Assembly: GCF_003334815.1 (NCBI RefSeq)
Contig: NZ_QOWO01000008.1
Direction: 5' to 3' (one strand)
DNA: 64,000 nt
Origin: Escherichia coli
GTDB taxonomy: Bacteria > Pseudomonadota > Gammaproteobacteria > Enterobacterales > Enterobacteriaceae
The notes below the pieces were generated by a model that did no database searches, was not told the origin of the DNA, and worked only from the letters and a program-made list of their open reading frames with translations. Shown in pieces: positions 14,697 to 15,523 of this stretch. Numbering within the stretch: the stretch's first letter is position 1; every line of letters begins with the position of its first letter. Both the position numbers and the translations under genes were made by a program.

Positions 14697-14730
14697 TAAA
14701 AAAAGGCCCCTGTTGAAATTGCAGGGGCCT
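14697..14730 (-). terminator. Rho-independent terminator of cutC / MicL
   Basis: Hairpin ggcccctg...caggggcc followed by T-run on minus strand. Confidence 0.75.
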
Positions 14731-15003
14731 GGTACGAGCAAGCATCATATTGGGCGACATGATGCAACGGTAAAAATCATTTGGCCTGATGGCGTTCAAT
14801 GATTCCTTTCATTTCAGCAACCGCCGCCCCGTCTACGATATAACGCGAATACTCGTCCGCGTGTTCATCTGATGACATGGACAATCCTTGATTACGATAA
14901 CGCATCGGTGAGGCTTGCCACGCTCCCGCGGAGCTATGGACTTCCAGCACTCCGGCATCGAGGAAGTGGTGCAGGTTTTCTGCACGGACTCCTGCTCCGG
15001 CCA
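14697..15003 (-). ncRNA. micL: MicL (RyeF) sigmaE-dependent sRNA embedded in the cutC 3' region
   Basis: sigmaE-type promoter GGAACTT-N16/17-TCCAA inside cutC lies about 307 nt upstream of the cutC terminator, matching the ~308 nt MicL transcript. Confidence 0.6.
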
Positions 15004-15523
15004 TAATGATTGGAGCATCACGATGGGCAATAAGTTCCATAATTTTTGATAAACCTTGCAGTGCGTCTGATTTTTGCCCTGATGTCAGTACCCGGGCAAT
15101 GCCCAATTCCGCAAGATTATTGAGTGTATATAAAGGGTTAGCGCACATATCGAAGGCGCGATGAAAAGTCACTGCCAGCGGACCGGCAGCAGCCATTATT
15201 TTTTCCATTCGTGGCATATCGACATTCCCGTCAACATCGAGAACGCCCGTCACCAGTCCAGGAAAACCTAATTCGCGGACCGTGCGCACATCCTCAAGAA
15301 TGGCGGCAAACTCACCGTCGCTGTAGCAAAAATCACCACCGCGTGGGCGAATTATCGGATGCACAGGGATCGTCACCCGCTGGCGCACGGATTTCAGTAC
15401 ACCCAACGACGGCGTTAAGCCCCCCTCTTTTGGGGCTGCGCATAATTCAACTCTGTCTGCGCCGTTTTGCTGCGCCGTTAGTGCACATTCCATGCTGTAA
15501 CAGCAAATTTCCAGTAATGCCAT
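14777..15523 (-). CDS. cutC: Copper homeostasis protein CutC
   Basis: 248 aa, [28 protein letters not shown]. Confidence 0.95.
15010..15038 (-). promoter_or_regulatory. sigmaE (RpoE) promoter for MicL
   Basis: Minus-strand GGAACTT at 15032-15038 and TCCAAT at 15010-15015. Confidence 0.55.

Follow-up and report, generated by a model that had tools for sequence, protein, structure and literature searches.

The micL small RNA gene within the cutC coding sequence of Escherichia coli: identity, promoter conservation and pairing with lpp

Introduction

Does the 3' part of the cutC gene of this Escherichia coli genome do no more than encode protein and end in a terminator, or does it also hold a second gene, that is, a small regulatory RNA (sRNA) with a promoter of its own? 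The question was raised by a preliminary description of the DNA, made from the sequence alone, which proposed that the sRNA MicL lies embedded in cutC, on the same strand, behind a sigma-E-type promoter. MicL is a textbook case of a regulatory RNA concealed within a protein-coding gene. Throughout, the window is the whole 64-kb stretch of E. coli DNA that was analysed, and positions are counted from its first nucleotide.

In this report, we establish the identity of the locus and its family match, the geometry of its promoter and the selection on synonymous sites there, the fold of the processed RNA, and the complementarity of its seed to the lpp message. Altogether, we put the probability that the locus is micL, an already known sRNA, at about 0.97; it holds no new biology. 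Its use is that of a positive control: the embedded gene can be recovered to within 2 nt from sequence alone, though the PGAP annotations that we examined omit micL.

A known small RNA gene at the 3' end of cutC

The host gene appears in the list of open reading frames as a coding sequence of 248 aa on the minus strand (14777..15523), with cutC b1874 at the equivalent place in K-12 and the gene order torZ-torY-cutC-yecM/argS also found there. When the whole window was scanned with Rfam 15, the MicL model RF02654 matched 15005..14698 on the same strand at 381.9 bits (E = 2.1e-115). The match far exceeds the gathering score of 56 and spans model positions 1-308 out of 308. It delimits a primary transcript of 308 nt (14698..15005, minus strand) that begins 226 nt ahead of the stop codon of cutC and runs to 14698, the end of the cutC terminator.

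The window is collinear with the K-12 MG1655 record NC_000913.3, starting at 1943744 of the latter. In this curated record the ncRNA micL (b4717) is placed at 1958441-1958747, where it overlaps cutC b1874; the interval corresponds to 14698-15004 of the window. The sources differ by one nucleotide in where they place the start of MicL: 15005 in the published work and in Rfam, 15004 in RefSeq (a transcript of 307 nt). Positions 14650-15100 are identical (100%) to the K-12 sequence, and a 451-nt query over cutC/micL is 100% identical to MG1655 and to many other strains. The same query was found at an identity of at least 95% in 5425 of the 5426 complete E. coli genomes. As a side observation, 5428 places in the E. 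coli collection match it, two of them on records typed as plasmids, and one of the 5426 genomes has no match at all.

Automated annotation gives another picture of the same DNA. The full feature table of the PGAP-annotated MG1655 record has no ncRNA at the micL position, just cutC, and cutC alone is named among the 15 matches listed for the cutC/micL query. The warning in the preliminary description that annotation based on open reading frames would pass over the gene is borne out by these records. The two computational checks that it proposed, an Rfam MicL scan and an alignment to K-12 micL, came back in favour of a gene embedded in cutC, and the span that it gave (14697-15040) does cover promoter, transcript and terminator. 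Two of its figures need adjusting. The start, put near 15003, was right to within 1-2 nt, the actual position being 15005 or 15004 depending on the source; and the distance of about 307 nt from start to terminator hairpin stands as a transcript length (307-308 nt), counted to the last base of the U-tract rather than to the hairpin.

A sigma-E promoter maintained inside a coding sequence

Within the cutC open reading frame (15523..14777), the minus strand reads ...ATGGAACTTATTGCCCATCGTGATGCTCCAATCATTATGGCC..., and two elements can be recognized in it. The -35 element GGAACTT (15032..15038) matches the sigma-E consensus exactly, and the -10 element TCCAA (15010..15014; consensus TCAAA) follows 17 nt past it, with TCCAA(T) extending to 15009. 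The pattern GGAACTT-N15-17-TCNAA has a single match in the 64-kb window, both strands counted, against an expectation of 0.06 from shuffled sequences, 6 of 100 of which yielded one match. This is the sigma-E-type promoter on the cutC strand (GGAACTT ... TCCAAT, 15038-15009) that had been read from the sequence beforehand, and it turns out to be both the sole match in the window and conserved at synonymous sites in 25 of 25 sequences.

The published rules for sigma-E promoters provide a yardstick. The consensus is GGAACTT / TCAAA with a spacer of 15-19 nt, 16 being preferred (Rhodius et al. 2006, PMC1312014). The discriminator measures 5-6 nt and the distance from -35 to +1 is 25-28 nt, short discriminators offsetting long spacers (PMC1312014). 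With a spacer of 17, a discriminator of 4 (or 5) and 26 (or 27) nt from -35 to +1, the micL promoter fits these rules well. A/T-rich sequence 5' of sigma-E -35 elements has also been described (Rhodius 2006, PMC1312014), and an A/T-rich stretch (TATCAAAAATTAT...) lies directly 5' of the -35 element here (15039..15056, minus strand), where it may act as an UP-like element. A simple promoter/terminator scan reported neither the micL promoter nor its terminator. This is no evidence against the feature, because the scan models only sigma-70 promoters and loops of 3-8 nt, and the loop of the MicL terminator has 9 nt.

To follow the locus beyond E. coli, GTDB species genomes were searched with a pattern built from conserved MicL-S columns (20 of its 80 positions were fixed), with the promoter bases left out. 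The search returned 28 loci: 25 from Enterobacteriaceae, in the genera Citrobacter, Escherichia, Salmonella, Klebsiella, Raoultella, Enterobacter, Lelliottia, Pseudenterobacter and Huaxiibacter, and three chance matches. The latter, in Berkelbacteria, Paraglaciecola and Paenibacillus, were rejected, having no sigma-E motif upstream and no Rfam MicL match.

In the enterobacterial set, GGAACT(T/A)-N17-TCCAA stands at the homologous place of cutC in 24 of 24 evaluable loci, at a cutC nucleotide identity to the window of 65-92%. GGAACT is invariant in 25/25 Enterobacteriaceae sequences, including the synonymous sites 15038 and 15035, and so is TCCAA (25/25), including the synonymous sites 15014 and 15011. 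In codon terms, the glutamate of the promoter elements is always GAA and the proline always CCA. The 17-nt spacer, by contrast, diverges freely, and the amino acids that it encodes vary. Since the synonymous sites of the promoter are held invariant while the spacer diverges, the motif is kept for reasons beyond the protein sequence. Third-codon positions tell the same story in numbers: 4 of 5 are invariant in the promoter elements compared with 19 of 247 (7.7%) across cutC (P = 1.6e-4), and 9 of those 19 sit in 15056-15002 (Fisher P = 7e-7). Invariant synonymous sites also lie 5' of the -35 element (15056, 15047 and 15044) and at +4 (15002), which suggests selection on the possible UP-like element and on the first transcribed nucleotides as well. 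Full-length Rfam MicL matches were found in all 12 enterobacterial loci scanned (86-369 bits) and in none of the three non-enterobacterial control loci.

Experiments on MicL have been carried out on a sequence identical to that of the window (Guo et al. 2014, PMC4102768). Primer extension, resistance to TEX and a sigma-E-inducible GFP fusion support the micL start, and this minimal PmicL fusion (-65 to +20) has a strength close to that of the micA and rybB promoters (PMC4102768). Northern blots show that a 300-nt and an 80-nt species are both sigma-E-induced (PMC4102768). Moreover, a synonymous PmicL mutant with the CutC protein intact shows the copper-sensitive phenotype of a cutC deletion; that is, the phenotype behind the cutC name is due to the missing MicL rather than to a missing CutC protein (PMC4102768). 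Since 15005..14698 of the window is the K-12 sequence, sigma-E dependence can be carried over from the K-12 experiments, and we infer from the 100% identity that the gene is transcribed, in a sigma-E-dependent manner, in this strain too.

How much of this could be explained without a promoter that matters? MicL-S, the processed form, might come mostly from RNase E processing of the yecM-cutC mRNA, as CpxQ does from cpxP, with the internal promoter being minor. Cleavage is indeed independent of the sequence 5' of the cut site (bioRxiv 10.1101/341578). On the other hand, the sigma-E induction of both RNA species and the PmicL point mutant, which loses the phenotype with cutC intact (PMC4102768), are hard to reconcile with a dispensable start, and the strong synonymous-site selection on the internal promoter argues for its importance. 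We consider a minor role for the promoter very unlikely. More improbable still is that GGAACTT...TCCAA arose by chance, or as a by-product of the CutC residues encoded there (M-E-L-I ... P-I), and that the locus has only a cutC mRNA 3' end with no independent start. The motif does sit in coding sequence, and the shuffles mentioned above show that a chance match in 64 kb is not negligible. Yet the contrast between promoter synonymous sites (4/5 against 7.7%) and freely changing spacer residues speaks against both versions of this reading, as does the position of the motif, which is precisely the one required by the start of the full-length Rfam match. The published start-site evidence on the identical sequence and the CutC-preserving promoter mutant that mimics the cutC deletion (PMC4102768) point the same way.

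With the internal promoter as the preferred source of MicL, it can be asked what the 228-nt 5' part, which overlaps cutC, contributes. We looked for extra third-position constraint in the MicL/cutC overlap and found none (mean entropy 1.115, compared with 1.206 in the rest of cutC; P = 0.3). An independent role for this part (targets of its own, or a sponge) is disfavoured because its third positions vary as much as those of the rest of cutC; either this or a distinct regulatory site at 15039-15056 would be a long shot.

From primary transcript to MicL-S

The active form of MicL is an 80-nt processed RNA, MicL-S (14698..14777, minus strand), which consists of the entire cutC 3' UTR (79 nt after the TGA) plus one base. 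Its 5' end is set where RNase E cuts after the G of the cutC stop codon TGA (14779-14777), that is, at 14777..14778, the cleavage itself being taken from the literature. RNase E has been shown to make the cut, and tandem stem-loops A and B fix its position (bioRxiv 10.1101/341578). Both stem-loops are present in the sequence here, and the UG|A site is predicted to be single-stranded and AU-rich.

MicL-S folds at -28.8 kcal/mol, with a z-score of -5.15 relative to shuffled sequences. In both the minimum free energy and the centroid structures, stem-loop A occupies nt 10-40 (14738..14768); its role in positioning the RNase E cut follows the published work (10.1101/341578). The intrinsic terminator (nt 48-74), or stem-loop B, lies with its U-tract at 14698..14730 and is common to cutC and MicL. 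It is built from a 9-bp G+C-rich stem (14730-14704) and a 9-nt loop, followed by seven U residues ending at 14698, and is presumed to be the Hfq-binding module. A Rho-independent terminator with a U-tail is the architecture of Hfq-type sRNAs; Hfq binding itself is known from experiment, in that both MicL forms co-immunoprecipitate with Hfq and depend on it for stability (PMC4102768).

Conservation follows the RNA. Across genera, 44 of the 47 columns of MicL-S nt 14-80 that the search pattern left unfixed are invariant, and all 10 columns directly 3' of the U-tract are variable. The near-invariance reaches about 35 nt 5' of the terminator stem, over stem-loop A and the single-stranded linker. 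The stems of MicL-S hardly vary among the retrieved loci, a set that was itself selected with 20 of 80 positions fixed. That the conserved 3' UTR is a terminator or mRNA-stability element alone, with no trans-acting role, can be dismissed as next to impossible: it does contain a canonical intrinsic terminator, but near-invariance extends well 5' of the terminator stem and gives way to full variability just past the U-tract, and the linker holds an 11-bp complement to lpp verified by compensatory mutation (PMC4102768).

Two relatives depart from this layout. In Raoultella terrigena and Enterobacter sp. 10-1, an insertion of ~60-70 nt separates the cutC stop codon from the MicL-S core, the distance from stop codon to pattern match being 92-93 nt instead of the 22 nt of E. 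coli. Given the insertion, the processing site in these two loci cannot be in the stop codon. Their Rfam MicL matches are still full-length, at 366-367 nt.

Pairing with lpp and a proposed mechanism

The MicL-S seed UGCUCGUACCAG (nt 38-49; 14729..14740, minus strand) pairs with lpp coding nucleotides +16 to +28. Because lpp lies outside the window, pairing was computed against the K-12 gene, where UGCUCGUACCAG and CUGGUACUGGGCG form 11 bp with one bulge at -16.2 kcal/mol. Pairing as good as this occurs in just 0.3% of 3118 natural 82-nt windows. A whole-length RNAduplex comparison of MicL-S with the lpp 5' region produced duplexes too long to be realistic, and these rose weakly above shuffles (P ~0.03-0.06). 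The seed-restricted test took its place; that is, the short seed alone stands out. In the Klebsiella/Raoultella group the seed carries a U41C change, which would turn a G-U pair with lpp into G-C, if lpp is unchanged there.

The regulatory biology of MicL is taken from published work with the K-12 sequence, which is identical: dependence on sigma-E, processing, binding to Hfq and repression of lpp. In particular, lpp is the one target reported for MicL, and the contact between MicL-S +38-49 and lpp coding nucleotides +16-28 has been proven by compensatory mutations (PMC4102768). The processing to MicL-S and the lpp repression that the preliminary description had attributed to this RNA have in this way experimental backing.

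From these elements a sequence of events can be proposed for micL, which is the third sigma-E-dependent sRNA of E. coli. When the envelope is stressed, or in stationary phase, RNA polymerase with sigma-E bound would initiate inside cutC from the elements at 15038-15032 and 15014-15010. RNase E would then cleave MicL, and cutC mRNA as well, in the cutC stop codon, with the two tandem 3' stem-loops placing the cut, and the product would be the 80-nt MicL-S. With the help of Hfq, nt 38-49 of MicL-S would pair with lpp codons 6-10 (+16 to +28), a contact expected to block translation and lead to decay of the message. Less would then be made of Lpp, the most abundant lipoprotein of the outer membrane, which would in turn ease the load on the envelope. 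MicL closes a feedback loop between sigma-E and Lpp that protects the outer membrane (PMC4102768).

MicL among related small RNAs

The nearest comparison is K-12 MicL itself (also RyeF; RF02654; b4717), which is the same gene as that of the window: position, promoter, 308-nt and 80-nt forms, seed and terminator are all alike. No difference is seen within the locus; the DNA around it belongs to a non-K-12 E. coli lineage.

To our knowledge, CpxQ lacks a separate promoter and arises solely by processing of the cpxP mRNA, whereas MicL is served by an internal sigma-E promoter of its own besides the processing route. CpxQ and other sRNAs derived from 3' UTRs otherwise resemble MicL-S: the 3' UTR of an mRNA is freed by RNase E, and Hfq and the terminator module are shared features (10.1101/341578). 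[quoted passage not shown]

MicA and RybB are, like MicL, sigma-E-dependent, Hfq-binding sRNAs of E. coli that repress abundant envelope proteins. These two are free-standing intergenic genes, unlike MicL, which sits inside a coding sequence and is processed. Their targets are different too: MicA and RybB act negatively on porin (OMP) mRNAs and leave an lpp fusion unrepressed, whereas lpp is the only target reported for MicL (PMC4102768). Further afield, MicV and VrrA of Vibrio cholerae are described as sigma-E-controlled envelope-stress sRNAs (PMC6694218), functional analogues of MicL. They belong to a different lineage and are unrelated to MicL in sequence; MicL is confined to a subset of Enterobacteriaceae.

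The wider window

Relative to MG1655, the window carries eight SNPs before position 34755 (11451, 14304, 18987, 19578, 22872, 30132, 34205 and 34716), and the 776-nt IS1H found upstream of flhDC in MG1655 is missing (34759-34760, 5' of flhD). Over the 24.9 kb from 10500 to 35400 the match to natural isolates such as strain 52F4 (NZ_CM147848.1) is 100%.

Other RNA features were noted along the way. Rfam matches to ES036 (CssrF) occur at 10720-10762 (+) and 57484-57525 (+), scoring 45.5 and 38.1 bits where the gathering score is 37.6, so just over it, and a similar match is present in an Escherichia whittamii locus; these may be short repeated hairpin elements, not genes. The curated K-12 record over the span of the window also lists the 3'ETS-leuZ sRNA, motR, asflhD, azuR/azuC, sdsN and fliX. 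A cluster of three tRNA genes at 47299-47598 (-) is leuZ-cysT-glyW in K-12. Finally, the C0465 RNA has a full-length Rfam match between tar and cheW (28996-29073 (+), 111.6 bits), in a span where the curated K-12 record leaves it unannotated.
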